Virus record (IMG/VR): IMGVR_UViG_2974512537_000001 | Coordinates: 17,077 to 81,076 of that record | DNA length: 64,000 nucleotides | DNA from: a virus | Lineage: Duplodnaviria > Caudoviricetes | Reading direction: 5' to 3' (one strand) | In this document: positions 4,622 through 53,959 of the stretch, in pieces | How positions within the stretch are numbered: position 1 is the first letter of the stretch | Layout: each line of letters opens with the position of its first letter | Program-made: the position numbers and the translations under genes | Notes under the pieces: generated by a model | Database searches by the model: none | What the model saw: the letters and a program-made list of their open reading frames with translations, nothing else | What the model was told of the DNA's origin: nothing

Positions 4622-6226
4622 CTAAAAGACTAAATCTTCATCGACACCGAACTTTCCATCACTACCAACTGTGATTTTAGTTCTCGGCACATCGACCAAG
4701 TTATAATTATAATCAGTCACGAACAACGGATAGCTATATAGCGTACCTAGGTTTGTGTACGTCCAAATAACTACCGATTTCTTTCCAAGACGGTTCTTGT
4801 AGATAAAGTGTCCCATGTTTGGTTCTAAACCGTAAGGGTTAACGTCTGAATTATTAATCAGGTTTTCCAAATTCTTTAAGTCTTTTCCGTTTGCCTCTGC
4901 TGAAATTACGCCAACGTCAATCTTATCAGCAATTGATTTGGAATCACGTAAGGCACGTTCTGTACGTGAGTATTCGTAATCCAGCTCACCAGATGGGCTA
5001 ATCTGCGTTGCTGATTGAATAAAAATATCGAGTTCCTTAGCCTTGGAACGAAGCTTGTCAGTCAAAGCTAACAAGATACGGTCGTCACGAATATCGCGTC
5101 CGCCGTAAAGTTCGGAACCAGTCCGCAATAGCTTAGGAACTGCTTGGATATAATCAAAGTTGACATATTTCACATCATAGTTAAAAACATATTCGTCAAT
5201 AATTGACATGACATCGTCAATACTGAAATCTTGGATTTCCTTGAAGTGCATTGGCGAATCGTGCAAAACCTTAGCGGCATGAGCAATGGTCTTCTTGGTT
5301 ATCGGGTCGTAGTTACCACGCCGAATAACTTCTGGTGTTAAATTAGTGATTGCCGACAACAGAATCATTTGAATTTCATGTTTATCCAACTCTGTTGAGA
5401 TAAATAAAGATGGCTCAACGTCATCATTTTTAACCCACTTTTTAGTATGCCAATTGTATTGTTCTGTGATGGACACGTTAATCAGGTCTGTAAGCCCTAA
5501 ACGGGTCTTCCCACCACCAGTTTTCATTGAACGCAAGAATAGCTTTCCGAGTTGCATACCACCCGTTAGAGAGTTCATGAAACCATCTTTAAAGCCGTAA
5601 CCATATTGAGGGGCGTCATTGATATGTTCAATAAAGTCCTCAATATCATCGCCAGCAGAGAAAGATGATGAATTATTTTGCCAATCTGAAACTTCATTTC
5701 TAATACCACTGACGATTTGAGTAAAGTGGTTGACAATGTCTTCCTCCGATAATTGACTAAGCCGTTTTTGTTGGTCTTCCAACAGCTTAACGTCCTCAGT
5801 GTGAATATCATAAATATCGCTAATGTCGATACCTTTTTCTGCAAACTTACGAAGCACCGTCATCTTCTTTAGATAATGGTAGTTTGAGTTAAACGTACCA
5901 ACGTTGGCGTTGTCTTTTGCCGATTGAATGTAATCAATCCCCTTAGCAGAAGTAAAGATTGAATGATACTGTTCAAACTGCGTCAAGTACGTGTCAACGT
6001 CAATTGCTGATATTTCTTTTAAGTGTTGCGATTCTTTAATAATATTGTTGATTGCAAAGAAGATAATGCGGTGAACTTTGTTCTGAAAATCTTCTTTGTC
6101 CAAGCATACGTTATCTGAAAGTAATTTTTCCGGGTTATTTAATAGGACACCCAAAACTCCAAAAATCTGGCTTTGTGGGATTAATGCCTTTAATTCGTTT
6201 TGGTTAATCAAATAAATCATCTCCAT
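4622..6226 (-). CDS. DnaB-like replicative helicase
   Basis: Walker A TGGGKT; FISTEL, FDYIQ, ATQI and DKID motifs of SF4 helicases. Confidence 0.85.
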   Translation of the reverse strand: MEMIYLINQNELKALIPQSQIFGVLGVLLNNPEKLLSDNVCLDKEDFQNKVHRIIFFAINNIIKESQHLKEISAIDVDTYLTQFEQYHSIFTSAKGIDYIQSAKDNANVGTFNSNYHYLKKMTVLRKFAEKGIDISDIYDIHTEDVKLLEDQQKRLSQLSEEDIVNHFTQIVSGIRNEVSDWQNNSSSFSAGDDIEDFIEHINDAPQYGYGFKDGFMNSLTGGMQLGKLFLRSMKTGGGKTRLGLTDLINVSITEQYNWHTKKWVKNDDVEPSLFISTELDKHEIQMILLSAITNLTPEVIRRGNYDPITKKTIAHAAKVLHDSPMHFKEIQDFSIDDVMSIIDEYVFNYDVKYVNFDYIQAVPKLLRTGSELYGGRDIRDDRILLALTDKLRSKAKELDIFIQSATQISPSGELDYEYSRTERALRDSKSIADKIDVGVISAEANGKDLKNLENLINNSDVNPYGLEPNMGHFIYKNRLGKKSVVIWTYTNLGTLYSYPLFVTDYNYNLVDVPRTKITVGSDGKFGVDEDLVF

Positions 6227-6962: not shown

Positions 6963-7669
6963 TATTTTAAAACTCCTCGCTTCTCTCGTGTATTTTTAAT
7001 TTCGTCAAATTCTGAATCAGTCAAGTAACCTAAATCAACTAACGTTTTTTCAATCGTGTCTAAAACAATAATCCTATCTTCGGTGCTGTTCACAAAGTCG
7101 TACTTGTTTCTGTCGATTCTAACAATTGGTGCTTCGCTGTAAGAATCAGCCCAGTTCTTAAAACCATCATTAATTGAGTGGTAGTATTCAATCAGTGCCG
7201 GGTCAGTCGTTTCCATTGTACGATTGCGTTCTAAGATACTCTTAATCTCATTCTCTGGGGAAATATCTAAGAACACATATAAGTCTGGATAATGTCCTTT
7301 TGGTTCCGCACTAACTGAATCTAACATGTGGCGCAATAACTTCAAATATAAGAAATATTCTTGGTCTGTCGTTTCGCCACGGTCGTGAATAACTTTGTAG
7401 ACAATCGAATCCGCAACCAAATTGGAGTCCATGACAGCACGGTCTTGCACGACAGCTTCTCGTAGTTGTGAGAAACGTTCATCGAGCCATGCGATTTGCA
7501 AAGGAAAACCATACTTCTTACGAGTTTCTTTACCACCAGAATAATAATCCTTTAGAATCGGAATAGCATATGGGTCTTCCAAATATTTTTTTGCACTCAA
7601 ATCTTCGCCTAAAATTTTTACCAACGAGCTCTTTCCAGCCCCGAATGCGGCCATAATATTGATTAACAA
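6962..7669 (-). CDS. deoxynucleoside kinase
   Basis: P-loop AAFGAGKSS, YLEDP, LQIAWLDERF, PDLYVFLD and R-x-R lid typical of the dNK family. Confidence 0.85.
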   Translation of the reverse strand: MLINIMAAFGAGKSSLVKILGEDLSAKKYLEDPYAIPILKDYYSGGKETRKKYGFPLQIAWLDERFSQLREAVVQDRAVMDSNLVADSIVYKVIHDRGETTDQEYFLYLKLLRHMLDSVSAEPKGHYPDLYVFLDISPENEIKSILERNRTMETTDPALIEYYHSINDGFKNWADSYSEAPIVRIDRNKYDFVNSTEDRIIVLDTIEKTLVDLGYLTDSEFDEIKNTREKRGVLK

Positions 7670-16850: not shown

Positions 16851-17154
16851 AAAACAGATTCGAGTAGATTTATATACTAAGAAAAACTGCGGTCAATGTC
16901 GAATGACAAAGAAACTTCTCGACCACTACGATATTGCTTACTTTGAAACCGACATTTCAGCCTTGTCAGAAGATGAAATTAACAACTTAAAGGACGAGGG
17001 ATTCTGGCAGGCTCCTATTGTTTCATTTCGTTATTTGGAAACTGGCAAGAGTGCTCGGTGGTCACAGACTGGTATGTGGGGAGGCTTCCAACCAGACGCA
17101 ATTAAAAAGTTAGCAGTCCTATATGGTACTAAACGTAATAAGGCGGTGGAATAA
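16837..17154 (+). CDS. nrdH: NrdH-like glutaredoxin
   Basis: LYTKKNCGQC, QAPIV, WGGFQPDAI. Confidence 0.85.
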   Translation: MEKNKKQIRVDLYTKKNCGQCRMTKKLLDHYDIAYFETDISALSEDEINNLKDEGFWQAPIVSFRYLETGKSARWSQTGMWGGFQPDAIKKLAVLYGTKRNKAVE

Positions 17155-47914: not shown

Positions 47915-48136
47915 TTACCCCTCGGCAATGTTATCTTCTAACCAGTACCCTAAAGGAACTACCTCATCGTCAGAACCAGAACCATCGCTGTTGTCATCAA
48001 CAGATAGCATTTCTAGTAAATCAAAATAATTGGTTTCCTCTAGGTTGTTGAACGTGTCTTGCTTTTGAGCAACTAATGCTTTTTCAAGACGATTAATCTC
48101 GTCCAGCGTTTCCTGAAACGTCTGCGGTTCCGCTGG
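47915..48136 (-). CDS. tail assembly chaperone C-terminal extension (gpT-like), no own start
   Basis: TFNNLEETNYFDLLEML gpT-like motif; +1 frame overlapping the end of the chaperone gene; no SD-supported start. Confidence 0.6.
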   Translation of the reverse strand, partial: PAEPQTFQETLDEINRLEKALVAQKQDTFNNLEETNYFDLLEMLSVDDNSDGSGSDDEVVPLGYWLEDNIAEG

Positions 48137-48491
48137 GCGTACTGTCGTCTTCGTCACCGTCCACAATCTGGTCAATGTGCATAACCTTTTGAATGATTTG
48201 AGCGAACAACTCATCGGTCTTATCTGAATCCAAGTCTTCAAGTTTATCAATTTGTGATTCTGATAAACGCAACATGTCAGCAATATATTCGGTGGTTGCT
48301 TCGTTAGCTTCGTACTGGTTCTTTAAGAACGCACTGTAAGCTTCTTCATCGGTCATGTTTTCGGCGTCAATGTTACCTAACGCTTCTAACTTCATTTGCA
48401 CCTTTAACGTCTTTTTGATATTTTTGTTAGTTTCGTTTACTTCAACGGGCTTGCGAATACCTAAGTCTTTTGCATTGATTTTGACAGTCAT
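48093..48491 (-). CDS. tail assembly chaperone (gpG-like)
   Basis: Between MTP and TMP; GAGGAG SD before ATG 48491. Confidence 0.8.
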   Translation of the reverse strand: MTVKINAKDLGIRKPVEVNETNKNIKKTLKVQMKLEALGNIDAENMTDEEAYSAFLKNQYEANEATTEYIADMLRLSESQIDKLEDLDSDKTDELFAQIIQKVMHIDQIVDGDEDDSTPSGTADVSGNAGRD

Positions 48492-48620
48492 GTGAATCTC
48501 CTCGTCTTTCATCTAATATTTTATTTTTGGATATGTACACACACACCCCAGACGGGGCATGTAGGTGATTATTCAGCCTCAATTGTTACATTACTCACAC
48601 TAGGAGCAACCTGAGCTAAT

Positions 48621-49238
48621 TTAGGCTTGGCCGCCGCTACTCGCAACAGCATTACCCGGAAATACGAAGTTAGTCCAATCTTCAATTTTGAAAGTGTCCT
48701 TGGCTTCGTCACCTTTAGCATAAGCGGCCTTATCAGATTGACGGTTAACACCAGTAAACGTTAATGAGTCTGGTGCCAATTGTTCTGATTCGGTGTTCGT
48801 TTGCATGTTGTGTTCTTCCAGACCGAAAGTACCTTTCAATAAGGCGAAGTGTAACTTGTTGTTCAAACGGCCGTGGGTGATAAATTCAATAACTGAATAT
48901 GGCGCACGGGTGTCTGACGTAACAACAGAGAAACCTTTTTCATTGTCAACACCAGTAATAGCGTCAATGATGTCTTCTGGAATATCGTTAGCACCAACAG
49001 TTGCTTGAACAGACCCAACACCTTTACCAGACGTTTCAACGACCATGTCAGAACCGTAAATCTTAGTCATCGTTGGAGTAAGACCAGTAATATTACCGAC
49101 CGTCATACCTTGTGCGGTAGTTGAGTCTAACGTGTACACACCAGTCGTACCAATTGCCGTGTTTGTCGTATCAACTTGTTCCTTGTCTGTTTCAAAGATA
49201 GCAAGCCGAGCGCTATCAATACCTTTGGTTTTTGCCAT
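48621..49238 (-). CDS. major tail protein
   Basis: Position; ITGL.P, YS.IEF, FALLKG.F pattern of phi13-type MTPs. Confidence 0.85.
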   Translation of the reverse strand: MAKTKGIDSARLAIFETDKEQVDTTNTAIGTTGVYTLDSTTAQGMTVGNITGLTPTMTKIYGSDMVVETSGKGVGSVQATVGANDIPEDIIDAITGVDNEKGFSVVTSDTRAPYSVIEFITHGRLNNKLHFALLKGTFGLEEHNMQTNTESEQLAPDSLTFTGVNRQSDKAAYAKGDEAKDTFKIEDWTNFVFPGNAVASSGGQA

Positions 49239-50516: not shown

Positions 50517-50804
50517 CTAGATTGAGAAGTTTCTACCATAATTCATAATGGTTTCTAGTGAGGAGGAATTAACAGTGCCACTGACGGGTGCTCCGTCACG
50601 TTTCAAGTATAGGGTCGTAGCAACTTCTAATACGGCTCTATCTACGATAGCCTCAAATTGTTTTTCACGAACACCCTCGAATTGACCGGCAACTCTTGAC
50701 ACGTAAAAATTGACGTAGTCAACAGCATGGTTAAAATATAAATCAACATCTTCATCAGAATCTGCGTTAATTTGATTCTTAAAGTCATCAATTGTCACTG
50801 ACAT
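50517..50804 (-). CDS. head-tail connector (gp6-like)
   Basis: FKNQIN.D..ED, AV...A..LY..R. Confidence 0.75.
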   Translation of the reverse strand: MSVTIDDFKNQINADSDEDVDLYFNHAVDYVNFYVSRVAGQFEGVREKQFEAIVDRAVLEVATTLYLKRDGAPVSGTVNSSSLETIMNYGRNFSI

Positions 50805-50846
50805 CTATTACAACACCTCCTATGTACGCCCCAAAACGGGGCAAGA

Positions 50847-51323
50847 TTATTGAGCTGGTTTTTGAGATGGAGCAACTGGAGTTCCTTTTGCTTCATCTGA
50901 TTTTTCAGAGTCGCCAGCGGCGTTTGTGCATACACCTTGCAGTGTATATTCAGTACCATTTGTTAAGCCGTCAACCGAGCCGGTTAATGACGTACCGAAA
51001 TCGGCAGTGCCGTTGTTCCCATCTGCTGTTTTCCAGTAAACAGTGCGCTTAGTGACCGCTGTACCGACATTCTGACCGTCAGAGAAGGTGACATCTAATT
51101 TACCATCACCAGCGCTAACCGCTAATGACGGCTTGCCGGGCACTTGGTTAGTGGTTGTAAAGTCACCAATCGTTGTCTTTGCACTTTCACCAGTATAGGC
51201 AATCTTATAACCAGAATACTTAGTGGCTGGAGTGAGTCCATTGATAGTAACTGGGGACGGTTGATTAGTTACAATCTTCTTATCCGTGTTGTCGTAAACA
51301 TCAAAATTCTTTGTCAAGGACAT
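50847..51323 (-). CDS. FN3-domain virion accessory protein (truncated FN3 + complete FN3)
   Basis: GLTPATKY and GLTNGTEY FN3 signatures; domain 1 starts at the strand-C equivalent. Confidence 0.75.
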   Translation of the reverse strand: MSLTKNFDVYDNTDKKIVTNQPSPVTINGLTPATKYSGYKIAYTGESAKTTIGDFTTTNQVPGKPSLAVSAGDGKLDVTFSDGQNVGTAVTKRTVYWKTADGNNGTADFGTSLTGSVDGLTNGTEYTLQGVCTNAAGDSEKSDEAKGTPVAPSQKPAQ

Positions 51324-51445
51324 TTCCTCCTTATCTTTGTAAATATGTACGCCCCCTCAAAAGAGGGGGTTGTTATCAAGTTTATTCGGCCGCAACTTTT
51401 ACGCTACTCACATCTGGAGTAACCTTAGTGACCTTTGGTGACGGA

Positions 51446-52735
51446 TTAATTACTCGCAGGCTTAGCAACCACGAATGCGTCAGGGTTGGTAACAGCACCG
51501 TCCATGTAGCCGTCAAGAACAACCAAATGACCACCAGCAAGCGCTTGTTGCGTATCAGCAGTAACGTGAGTTAAACGCAACCCTTGTTTAGTCATAATAG
51601 TGTAACCAGCGCTAAAGTTACCTAAAACGATTTGACCATCTGCGTTACCGTTCAATTGGTCAGATACGAACACAGGAATGCCTTGGAATGAGAATCCCGG
51701 CCGAACAGCCACAGCACCAGCAATAGTGTTTTGCATTTGTGGCTTGAAGATTAAGTGTTCGTTGTCATCATCTTTCATCTTTGATAAAGCGTTGAACACT
51801 TCACGAGATACAACAAATACGGCACGGTCTAAATATGCTGGATTAATTGAAGCTGTTAATTCAATCAATTCGTCCAACGTAGGAGTTGCACCGGCCAATT
51901 GAACAACTTGAACACCGTTATCTGCGGCAACAACTGGACGGAAAGTCTTTGAAGCGGCTTCTGGAGTCTTAGCACCAACTAATACGGCACGTTCGATAGC
52001 TTTAGCCAATGAACGACCTAAACGACCAACAGCGTAGCCAACAATGTCAGGAGCACCATCGTTAATCATCATGTTCGATAATTGCATTGAAGCACCGACA
52101 CGCTTTTGAGTTAATTCAACATACTTCAATGATGGAGTTTGTGCTTTTACTTCTTCAAGTTCACCAACGAAACCATCATCGGAAGTATCACTTTCACGGA
52201 CAACCCGTAAGTTACCAGTTACAGAACCAATCTTGTTTGACAATGCAAACACTGGTGAAGTTTCTTGTAACTTTTCAACAATGGTGTCAGCAACGGTCGT
52301 AGGAACGAGAACACCGCCGTTAGCTTTTTGACCATCAACGGCTTGTCCCCATGACAAACCATTGTCTGGTAATGCACGGTCTTCTACATCAAGACCTTCA
52401 TCATGTTCTTTTACGGCTTCAATATAGTCACGAACCGCTTTGCTACCTTGCATGTTGTCACGGAATAAATCTGCGGCCGCCCGCTTTTCAAGTTTCTTTA
52501 AATCTGCCATGTCTTTTTCAGCTCCTCGTGTATTATGTTGTGTAGGAATGGCGCTACTGCGTTGTTCATCTAAACTTGCGATTTCGTCATTGATAGAAAC
52601 AATATCTGACTTGATAGAACGCATTTCTTCTAATTGTTCGTCAGTAATAGTGCCATCTTCAATAACTGGTTTAAAGTCGTTCAGCTTGCTCTTTAAAGCC
52701 GAGCGCTTTTCCAAAAGACCTTTCTTTGTTTTCAC
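51446..52735 (-). CDS. major capsid protein, HK97 family
   Basis: Coiled-coil delta domain, GGVLVPTT, G.P.F, GNFS.GY, D...V..P.AF. Confidence 0.92.
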   Translation of the reverse strand: MKTKKGLLEKRSALKSKLNDFKPVIEDGTITDEQLEEMRSIKSDIVSINDEIASLDEQRSSAIPTQHNTRGAEKDMADLKKLEKRAAADLFRDNMQGSKAVRDYIEAVKEHDEGLDVEDRALPDNGLSWGQAVDGQKANGGVLVPTTVADTIVEKLQETSPVFALSNKIGSVTGNLRVVRESDTSDDGFVGELEEVKAQTPSLKYVELTQKRVGASMQLSNMMINDGAPDIVGYAVGRLGRSLAKAIERAVLVGAKTPEAASKTFRPVVAADNGVQVVQLAGATPTLDELIELTASINPAYLDRAVFVVSREVFNALSKMKDDDNEHLIFKPQMQNTIAGAVAVRPGFSFQGIPVFVSDQLNGNADGQIVLGNFSAGYTIMTKQGLRLTHVTADTQQALAGGHLVVLDGYMDGAVTNPDAFVVAKPASN

Positions 52736-52738
52736 TAA

Positions 52739-53959
52739 TTAGACCTCCAAATCATTAATTTCTTTTAATAATTCACGTGCTTCCATACTGCGCTTTTCAG
52801 CGTTTTTGCAAGCTCTAGTGTCATCTTCCGACCCGTCTTCATTATTACCTTTAGAATCGGTTTTTGATTTATCGTTAGGTTTACCATCTGATTCGCCAGT
52901 GTTTTCACCATTATCTGGTTTATCGTCACGTTTTTTTGGCTTTACGATAACTTCGTTTGCCGGAAGCTTTGCGCGCTTATCTGATTTCATTGAGTCAGTT
53001 TCAGTGTCATCATCTGGCATATCAGAACCGTCTGGTTCAGGAACATCGCCCTCACCATCGCGTTTAGCTAACGAAGTTTTAATACCTTCCAAGATAGAAG
53101 CGACAATACGGTCTGTCAATTCATCAATGTCAATAGTTTGTGACGGAGCTTGTGCGTCTTCTGATTCTACTTGGCCGTCATCGGTTAAATCATCATCAGA
53201 TGGTTCATCATCACGCTTTTTCGGTTTCACAATTACTTCATTGGCTGGAAGTTTACCACGTTTTTTTGGCTTTACGATAACTTCATTTGCCGGAAGCTTT
53301 GCGCGCCGTTCTAATTCAGCGAATAAATCTTTAGTTTCTACATCTCGTAGTTCCAAGTTGTTTCCCTCCTTAATATTAACAACTTCCGATACGCTATTAA
53401 TACCCCTATGTTCAAGTTCTTTTAACTCTTTAAGACCACGAGCTTCAATACTTGAACTTAGATAAGCAGGGAAACGTACCGCAGATACTTCTTTTAAGCT
53501 AATTTCTTTGACGGTTCGTAGCGGAATACCGTCATCAAATCGGCCACCAGACCTATCCCACTCATCATCAAGGACGATAAATCCAAAACTCATACTCGTA
53601 ATAACACCGCTCTTGATAAGTTCATAGGTGTCACGACCATCATTCGTGTCTAGGATTTGTGCTTCCATATACAGGCCGTCATCGTCTGCACGGAGTGTCA
53701 ATGAATGATTAACAGTGGTTGCTAGTAGCTTTTGAGCGTCATGCTCCGCATAAAAATCAATCGGGTCTTTTGTTTTAACGGCTTCAACAAATGCTTGCGG
53801 CAAAATAGTTTCACGGAAAGGGGCACCATCGGCAGACATTACTTGGCTGTAAGAACCAGCTCTGTTAACATAACCAGATACCTTTAGAGATTTATCATCA
53901 AAAGATAAATCCCGTGTTTCAAAACTAAGTGTCCGTAATTCTTTTTGTTTAATCGTCAT
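52739..53959 (-). CDS. HK97-family prohead protease with long acidic repeat tail
   Basis: EHD, DDDGL, MSFGF, EVSAV.FPAY; 3x KLPANEVIVKPKKR. Confidence 0.9.
   Translation of the reverse strand: MTIKQKELRTLSFETRDLSFDDKSLKVSGYVNRAGSYSQVMSADGAPFRETILPQAFVEAVKTKDPIDFYAEHDAQKLLATTVNHSLTLRADDDGLYMEAQILDTNDGRDTYELIKSGVITSMSFGFIVLDDEWDRSGGRFDDGIPLRTVKEISLKEVSAVRFPAYLSSSIEARGLKELKELEHRGINSVSEVVNIKEGNNLELRDVETKDLFAELERRAKLPANEVIVKPKKRGKLPANEVIVKPKKRDDEPSDDDLTDDGQVESEDAQAPSQTIDIDELTDRIVASILEGIKTSLAKRDGEGDVPEPDGSDMPDDDTETDSMKSDKRAKLPANEVIVKPKKRDDKPDNGENTGESDGKPNDKSKTDSKGNNEDGSEDDTRACKNAEKRSMEARELLKEINDLEV

Follow-up and report, generated by a model that had tools for sequence, protein, structure and literature searches.

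Conserved +1-frame tags at the ends of capsid and tail-tube genes and a truncated FN3 protein: a candidate split-domain decoration system in a relative of Lactobacillus plantarum phages

Why should a reading frame remain open behind the stop codon of a major capsid gene, directly ahead of a gene whose product starts at an inner strand of an FN3 domain? This question is raised by a 64,000-nt stretch of a Caudoviricetes genome (record IMGVR_UViG_2974512537_000001, positions 17,077 to 81,076), referred to below as the window; all coordinates are those of the window, and every gene of the region lies on the minus strand. The capsid gene (51446..52735) encodes a protein of the HK97 type with a zero-frame product of 429 aa (Pfam Phage_capsid PF05065, E 5.3e-41), which is annotated as major capsid protein in the homologues of phages P1, ATCC 8014-B2 and Lenus. 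It is followed by a gene for an FN3 protein (50847..51323; 158 aa when counted from ATG 51323), identified as an open reading frame (ORF) with a Pfam fn3 match and a confident AlphaFold model (predicted local distance difference test score, pLDDT, 93.6). The original prediction was that a peptide encoded in the +1 frame behind the capsid stop supplies the FN3 strands which this protein lacks.

The region is 93% identical to the Lactobacillus plantarum phages P1 and P2, approximately 80% identical to ATCC 8014-B2 and Gut-P1, and approximately 70% identical to SA-C12, Lenus and Nyseid, all of which belong to the subfamily Tybeckvirinae. It was compared with 14 related loci taken from phage records, viral contigs, metagenomes and assemblies, in which the identity of the FN3 protein is 58-98%. 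We consider it likely (with a probability of about 60%) that the locus encodes a three-part virion decoration system composed of a recoding event, a short C-terminal tag and an FN3 partner protein, and that the latter is probably fastened to both the head and the tail.

The capsid gene ends with GCG AGT AAT TAA. Behind this stop, frames 0 and -1 are shut within a few codons and the +1 frame alone is open. The capsid tag (51382..51453) comprises 23 codons from GTA 51453 to GAA 51385, followed by the stop codon TAA at 51384-51382; its length is 21 residues if counted from AAT 51447 and 23 if counted from GTA 51453. In a single genome, one open run of this length in the +1 frame is not rare by chance. 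Among the 14 related loci, every one has the +1 frame open to the same position, with the same length and a similar sequence, usually closed by a double stop, so that the extension noticed in the original prediction proved to be conserved in all of these loci. The tag measures 21-23 residues in every locus, and the extension is never a complete immunoglobulin (Ig)-like or FN3 domain.

The pattern of substitution is that of a coding sequence. In six gap-free capsid tags the numbers of variable sites at codon positions 1, 2 and 3 were 7, 9 and 18, respectively. Comparison of the tags of loci L012 and L015 (Nei-Gojobori counts) gave a proportion of synonymous differences (pS) of 0.85 against a proportion of non-synonymous differences (pN) of 0.09 (Fisher p = 2e-8), and several other deep pairs gave p values between 6e-5 and 3e-4, with pN/pS ratios of 0.1-0.3. 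The capsid +1 peptide is under purifying selection, with synonymous change far exceeding non-synonymous change.

A stop shuts the +1 frame six or seven codons upstream of the tag in the P1 and Lenus groups, and in the Lenus-type loci there is no start codon between this stop and the tag. The tag can therefore be reached only as an extension from the capsid frame, and independent initiation is ruled out by the Lenus-type loci.

The major tail (tube) protein gene (48621..49238; 205 aa; Pfam Phage_TTP_1 PF04630, E 2.9e-27; annotated as major tail protein in the relatives) has a tag of its own at the 3' end. This second tag consists of 23 codons in the +1 frame (48640-48572) followed by the stop codon TAA at 48571-48569 (feature 48569..48640), and is conserved in P1, ATCC 8014-B2, Lenus and the loci L027 and L014. 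The tail and capsid tags are of equal length and identical at 10 of 23 residues. When the two tags of the window were aligned with 12 tags of the relatives, a consensus VxxPxPxVxxVTPxVSxATIxAE with one invariant proline was obtained. In a six-frame translation of the whole window, these two were the only peptides of the kind. The same structure, a conserved out-of-frame ORF without a start codon of its own, is thus present at the 3' ends of both the capsid and the tail genes, and we are highly confident that both tags are real coding features. That the tail-tube gene has a homologous tag as well agrees with the idea of a shared docking tag.

The capsid tag of the window (51385-51453) is strongly diverged from that of P1 (pS 0.68, pN 0.25; P1 tags at 2368-2436 and 5169-5237 of locus L011), despite the 93% identity of the region from the capsid to the connector gene. 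In P1, the capsid tag is of the type seen in ATCC 8014-B2, whereas the tail tag matches the type of the window, and tags therefore seem to be exchanged as small cassettes.

How, then, would ribosomes enter the +1 frame? A candidate shift site, the heptamer GCG_AGU_A, lies in frame at the 3' end of the capsid gene (51451..51457). It is invariant in the capsid loci, apart from L017, where it reads GTG_AGT_A; in the form GYG_AGU_A it is constant, while both the sequence that follows and the distance to the stop vary. The zero-frame stop (UAA or UAG) is situated about 1 to 7 codons past the conserved site, after differing codons, and past the heptamer conservation is seen at the protein level only. 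In L017 a TGA of the +1 frame immediately precedes the GUA of the heptamer, and the shift therefore cannot fall upstream of the site.

A second in-frame copy (48638..48644) is present six codons before the stop of the tail protein gene, an arrangement of heptamer and tag shared by the tail genes of P1 and L027. Within the long ORFs of the window, GCG_AGU_A occurs in frame only at these two positions, the capsid end and the tail-tube end. The tail genes of ATCC 8014-B2 and Lenus lack the heptamer and have CCC_AGY_G instead, from which the homologous tail tag is reached. A site of this second type, CCC_AGC_G (48131..48137), is found in the tail assembly chaperone gene of the window, where it is the only in-frame CCC_AGY in the long ORFs and precedes a 72-codon +1 ORF; we take it to be the +1 site that opens the gpT-like frame. 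In L029, too, ribosomes can enter the gpT-like frame of the chaperone gene, where the frameshift is obligatory, only through CCC_AGY_G (at 7112). The phage tRNA-Pro(UGG) is cognate for the +1 codon CCA at the chaperone site of the window.

Comparison of the heptamer with the CCC_AGY_G sites reveals that all of them place an AGY serine codon in the zero-frame A site, after GCG, GUG or CCC. In Bacillota, these three codons are probably all decoded by tRNAs whose U34 forms a weak pair with the third base. The A that follows the P-site codon could pair with U34 and would then be out of reach of the A site, with GUA (or GCG or GUG at the other sites) being read next. A +1 shift at GYG_AGU_A is, in our opinion, the likely origin of the tags.

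The second domain of the partner protein (residues approximately 61-150; 50874..51143), the proposed displayed domain, is a complete FN3 domain: the Pfam fn3 profile matches residues 71-146 (26.4 bits against a cut-off of 25), which places it in PF00041, and single FN3 chains align to it with Z scores of 13-14 and a root-mean-square deviation of 1.7-2.0 A. There is no match on residues 1-60. The first domain (residues 1 to approximately 58; 51150..51323), the proposed catcher, appears to contain strands C to G only. The NFDVYD motif stands at, or only a few residues from, the N-terminus of all 20 homologues analyzed, with no N-terminally longer version among them. In profile alignments to solved tandem FN3 proteins, residue 10 or 22 of the query stands opposite residue 53 or 69 of the chain. 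This offset of approximately 43-47 residues indicates that domain 1 lacks about 25-30 N-terminal residues of a canonical FN3 domain. In the AlphaFold model of the monomer, domain 1 has strands C, C', F and G, strands A and B are absent and the strand E segment is unassigned, while domain 2 is complete; within one chain, domain 1 does not form a seven-strand sandwich. The Foldseek and VIA-align matches of the protein were FN3 tandems and single FN3 domains. The original description of this protein, with a complete second domain and a first domain devoid of strands A and B, is borne out by these results.

The exact start of the protein was also considered. ATG 51323 lies 2 nt after the GGAGG core of the ribosome binding site (51330-51326) and TTG 51317 lies 8 nt after it; the TTG is the start annotated in P1, ATCC 8014-B2 and Gut-P1. 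The spacing from the Shine-Dalgarno sequence and the annotation of the relatives therefore make TTG 51317 the likely start codon, in which case the protein probably begins two residues later, three or four residues before strand C. In the relatives, the gene is annotated as 'tail protein' or 'hypothetical'.

Structural neighbours of domain 1 in the ESM Atlas included stand-alone hypothetical Bacillota proteins of 65-77 aa (template modelling score 0.71-0.75 over 58 residues); others were the N-termini of Big_2 proteins of 167-169 aa. There are hints that the five-strand module modelled for domain 1 may be portable. A search of 1.84 billion representatives with an FN3 profile was swamped by giant multi-FN3 proteins, and a search for longer homologues of the FN3 protein returned such giants only, with no capsid-FN3 fusion among them. 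A scan of genome contigs, and a scan of viral contigs with the L014 protein, gave no match; the tags themselves vary too much for their alignment to serve in scanning for further loci.

Does the tag complete domain 1? Loci of the ATCC 8014-B2 type happen to have the tag in frame with the FN3 gene, with four stops and a hairpin between them, which allowed us to model a read-through construct of 198 residues with glycine at the stops (AlphaFold; alignment with two similar read-throughs and FN3 homologues). Two strands (residues 7-13 and 18-23) are predicted for the tag in the best of the models; the block has a pLDDT of 97, and the 21-residue artificial linker one below 50. The strand E segment of domain 1 forms a strand only in this model, not in the monomer. 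Of the 177 ordered residues, 175-177, the tag included, align with the tandem FN3 structures of titin (A77-A78) and PTP-delta (Fn1-Fn2). The model is consistent with a tag that folds as a two-strand hairpin next to domain 1, at the position of strands A and B.

The distribution of the two components provides a further argument. Of all homologues of the FN3 protein, the most distant one (42% identity) is encoded by L014, a prophage-like stretch of a 412-kb metagenomic contig. The protease of this locus is of the ClpP type, and its capsid protein has no BLASTP similarity to that of the window (E 0.13). In the 8.5 kb of L014, GCGAGTA occurs exactly twice, once where the capsid gene ends and once where the tail-tube gene ends, both times in frame and each time followed by a homologous 21-codon +1 tag. 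The gap between the capsid and FN3 genes is 47 nt in this locus; the hairpin is absent, and the tag stop lies partly within the FN3 ribosome binding site. In phage ATCCB (L007, L025), which also belongs to Tybeckvirinae, the FN3 gene is missing and so are the tags of both the capsid and the tail-tube gene; where the FN3 gene would stand, a transposase gene and a small ORF on the reverse strand are found instead (L007 2639-4315). The presence of both components in L014 and of neither in ATCCB indicates that the tags and the truncated FN3 gene are inherited and lost together.

We propose the following scheme. A fraction of the ribosomes translating the capsid and tail-tube mRNAs would shift +1 at GCG_AGU_A, with alanine in the P site and AGU in the A site, and would then read GUA and 22 more codons, so that some subunits would carry a 23-residue C-terminal tag. 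The tag would form a beta-hairpin equivalent to FN3 strands A and B, and the five-strand domain 1 of the FN3 protein, which starts at strand C, would be completed by it through fold complementation. The FN3 protein would thereby be attached to the head and the tail with its complete domain 2 facing outward. That the tags dock the FN3 protein by supplying strands A and B is the version of events that we favour. From the evidence above we infer the occurrence and rate of the shift, the Ala-Val junction, the docking geometry and an outward function of domain 2; by analogy with proposals for other phage Ig-like domains, this function is probably adhesion to carbohydrates or surfaces.

Several observations weigh against this scheme. 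Only two of the five read-through models were confident (mean pLDDT 88 and 87, compared with 75-77 for the others), and AlphaFold may be inclined to complete a familiar fold. Domain 1 was also modelled confidently without the tag, and the read-through model therefore does not show that it needs the tag. A generic FN3 profile, home-made from approximately 2,900 repeats of giant FN3 proteins, gave chimeras of the tag and domain 1 no more bits than chimeras with shuffled tags (domain 1 itself scores 4-12 bits with this profile). No match was obtained when the tag alignment was compared with the FN3 protein by hhalign (profile-profile), and Pfam detected no extra fn3 stretch in the read-through. 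As regards recoding, we know of no bacterial shift site of the form GCG_AGU_A; no conserved RNA structure or sequence stimulator was detected 3' of the heptamer (RNAalifold -3.2 kcal/mol, almost no covariation); and the synonymous sites of the last capsid codons were not unusually conserved (in a crude test, confounded by an indel). A search of the literature yielded no proteomic or structural study of these phages, and the papers on L. brevis phages and Gut-P1 contained nothing on the proteins concerned. An alignment made by MAFFT with free tag peptides placed the peptides wrongly onto the strand E region and was discarded.

Part of this evidence would suit tags that are made by frameshifting but act alone, for example by reinforcing contacts between subunits or by touching the host surface, with the FN3 protein binding the virion elsewhere or not at all. 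The confident model of domain 1 by itself and the failure of sequence profiles to see FN3 strands A and B in the tag speak for such a possibility. We nevertheless regard it as rather unlikely, given that the tags and the truncated FN3 gene occur together in two lineages with unrelated capsids and are both gone in ATCCB, that domain 1 misses exactly the two strands which a hairpin of 21-23 residues would provide, that the hairpin of the tag is confident in the read-through model, and that a solved precedent exists in phage Tuc2009. The original assignment of the peptide to an A-B hairpin is consistent with the predicted two-strand hairpin; sequence profiles do not recognise the tag as such. Another alternative is that the +1 ORFs are untranslated, either remnants of former complete FN3 extensions or sequences kept for a nucleic-acid reason, such as a terminator or processing site; it could draw on the hairpin and GTACATA motif behind each tag and on the fact that an ORF this short is not improbable by chance in one genome. 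The dominance of third-position changes, the low pN/pS over several deep pairs, the preservation of length and stop position in 14 loci and on two genes, the lack of conserved RNA structure in the tag, and the retention of the tag in L014, which has no hairpin, make it very unlikely.

The route into the +1 frame could also differ from the one proposed. The shift might take place between GYG_AGU_A and the zero-frame stop, perhaps in a gene-specific manner, for example at a shifty stop: in most capsid loci the stop is only two codons past AGU, and AAA or AAG followed by UAA or UAG resembles the +1 site type of Euplotes. The stretch between the heptamer and the stop varies freely, however, and only the heptamer or CCC_AGY_G is shared, so we consider this unlikely. 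Less credible still is the mechanism suggested in the original prediction, in which peptidyl-tRNA-Asn hops from the last sense codon, AAU, over the stop to the AAU 4 nt downstream, aided by the tRNA-Asn(GUU) of the phage. Indeed, the capsid genes of the window and of the Lenus type read AAT TAA T, and the phage encodes this tRNA (together with Arg-UCU, Leu-UAG and Pro-UGG). Elsewhere among the relatives, AAG, AAA, GCC or CGC stands before the stop, and the triplet for landing reads AAC or AGU or is missing; moreover, the tail tags are entered six or more codons before the stop, and hopping would leave the invariant GYG_AGU_A unexplained. Because the AAU codons vary while GYG_AGU_A does not, this route was dropped, as highly improbable, in favour of the shift at the heptamer. 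A bypass like that of T4 gene 60, with GAA as the take-off codon and a GAA before the FN3 start as the landing site, was considered as well and rejected, since the relatives have no matching landing codon.

Completion of an incomplete Ig-like fold by a strand or peptide of another chain, with formation of a very stable complex, is known from donor-strand complementation in chaperone-usher pili and from the engineered SpyTag/SpyCatcher pair. Pilus subunits donate a single strand (G), whereas an A-B hairpin would be donated here; SpyTag forms a covalent isopeptide bond within a CnaB fold, and nothing in the present system suggests a covalent bond. In Bacillus phage SPP1, part of the tail-tube subunits reportedly acquire an FN3 domain through a +1 frameshift at the 3' end of their gene (gp17.1*). 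The SPP1 extension is said to contain the whole FN3 domain, with no separate partner protein, in contrast to the partner proposed here.

The closest structural precedent comes from phage Tuc2009 (PDB 5E7T), where a 25-residue C-terminal hairpin of BppU completes the sheet of the 57-residue domain 2 of BppA, giving a composite that resembles a titin domain (PMC4742702). These sizes are close to those found in this study (23 and approximately 58 residues, with the hairpin being predicted). The Tuc2009 hairpin is encoded in frame and belongs to one protein of the baseplate, whereas in the window it would be delivered by recoding to two proteins, of the head and of the tube. 5E7T was absent from the PDB profile matches at E values up to 1; given the shortness of the domain, this test has little power.

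Frameshift-made long forms of both the capsid and the tail-tube protein, several with Ig-like domains, have been described for the Listeria phages PSA, A118 and A500 and the Lactobacillus phage A2; in PSA both shifts are +1 (PMC5009743). The window resembles these phages in that a Bacillota siphophage would use programmed frameshifts at the 3' ends of both genes to make a minor, C-terminally extended form. The tail-tube protein of the window and the Tsh of a Listeria phage are distantly homologous (27% identity); in Listeria phage LP-HM00113468, Tsh is homologous and no extension was found. In the Listeria phages and A2 the extension is a whole domain, while here it is limited to 21-23 residues, and the remaining strands belong to the product of another gene. 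The shift sites differ too, being CCC_UGA and ACA_CCC_UCC in the Listeria phages as opposed to GCG_AGU_A or CCC_AGY_G.

A likeness in the shift site itself is offered by yeast Ty3 (GCG_AGU_U), where the shift depends on slow decoding of AGU and an Ala-Val product is made without re-pairing of the peptidyl-tRNA; the EST3 site reads CUU_AGU_U (PMC5009743). The GCG in the P site and the in-frame AGU in the A site are common to Ty3 and the window, as are all of the first six bases, and an Ala-Val junction would be expected in both. Ty3 is eukaryotic, however, the seventh base is U rather than A, and a 14-nt 3' stimulator is needed there, in contrast to the lack of any conserved element detected downstream of the heptamer.

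No paper describing a split-FN3 hairpin delivered by recoding was found in the literature. What is new is the combination: recoding delivers the hairpin only, and the same hairpin stands on two unrelated structural proteins. By comparison with the systems above, the encoding of the rest of the domain together with a putative display domain as a separate gene, and a shift site apparently of the Ty3 kind, are also new.

A broader proposal can be put forward tentatively, at slightly less than even odds. Bacillota phages may widely use a natural tag-and-catcher system in which recoding adds just FN3 strands A and B to some of the head and tube subunits, and a portable five-strand catcher, which occurs either alone (65-77 aa) or fused to FN3 or Big_2, carries any display domain to both. 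In the present case the tag would be added by a Ty3-like +1 shift without re-pairing at GYG_AGU_A, the first of its kind in bacteria, and following the same logic as CCC_AGY_G (a P-site tRNA with U34, a weak third pair, and then A). If this is true, the number of decoration proteins on the head and tail is set by the frameshift rate and not by gene dosage, and any structural protein can be made a docking site by the addition of 23 residues. Portability would then explain the presence of the same cassette on capsid genes without detectable similarity. It would also mean that a new bacterial +1 recoding signal exists, with the first six bases of yeast Ty3, through which 'no re-pairing' could be tested in a simple bacterial system, and that a small natural non-covalent tag/catcher pair on a food-grade Lactobacillus phage could serve as a display scaffold. 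Genome annotation currently misses all three products, i.e. the two tagged forms and the FN3 protein.

Other genes of the region are those of a prohead protease (52739-53959), a gp6-like connector (50517-50804) and the tail assembly chaperone (48093-48512; Pfam Phage_TAC_3). Between the capsid tag and the FN3 gene there is a G+C-rich hairpin (51344..51369), with stems at 51369-51363 and 51358-51352 followed by GTACATA at 51350-51344. The combination of hairpin, GTACATA and the ribosome binding site of the next gene occurs on the minus strand at three places, after the capsid tag (51344-51369), after the FN3 gene (50826-50846) and after the tail tag (48535-48560). Relatives have it as well (in the Lenus group as CATACATA); a role as terminator, as processing site or as part of a late promoter is conceivable.

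Capsid genes with extensions of another type were noticed in two distant relatives, the Enterococcus phage vipetofem (L008 3302-3440) and phage 9183 (L010 3252-3350). Both are followed by a -1-frame extension of approximately 30-45 codons, which encodes almost pure threonine. The junction is a classical slippery sequence, C_CCA_AAA, in 9183, and GCA_AAG before the stop in vipetofem; the next gene in both phages encodes a conserved protein of 290 aa without a Pfam family. The threonine extension looks like a different kind of frameshift-made capsid tail, perhaps a target of glycosylation.

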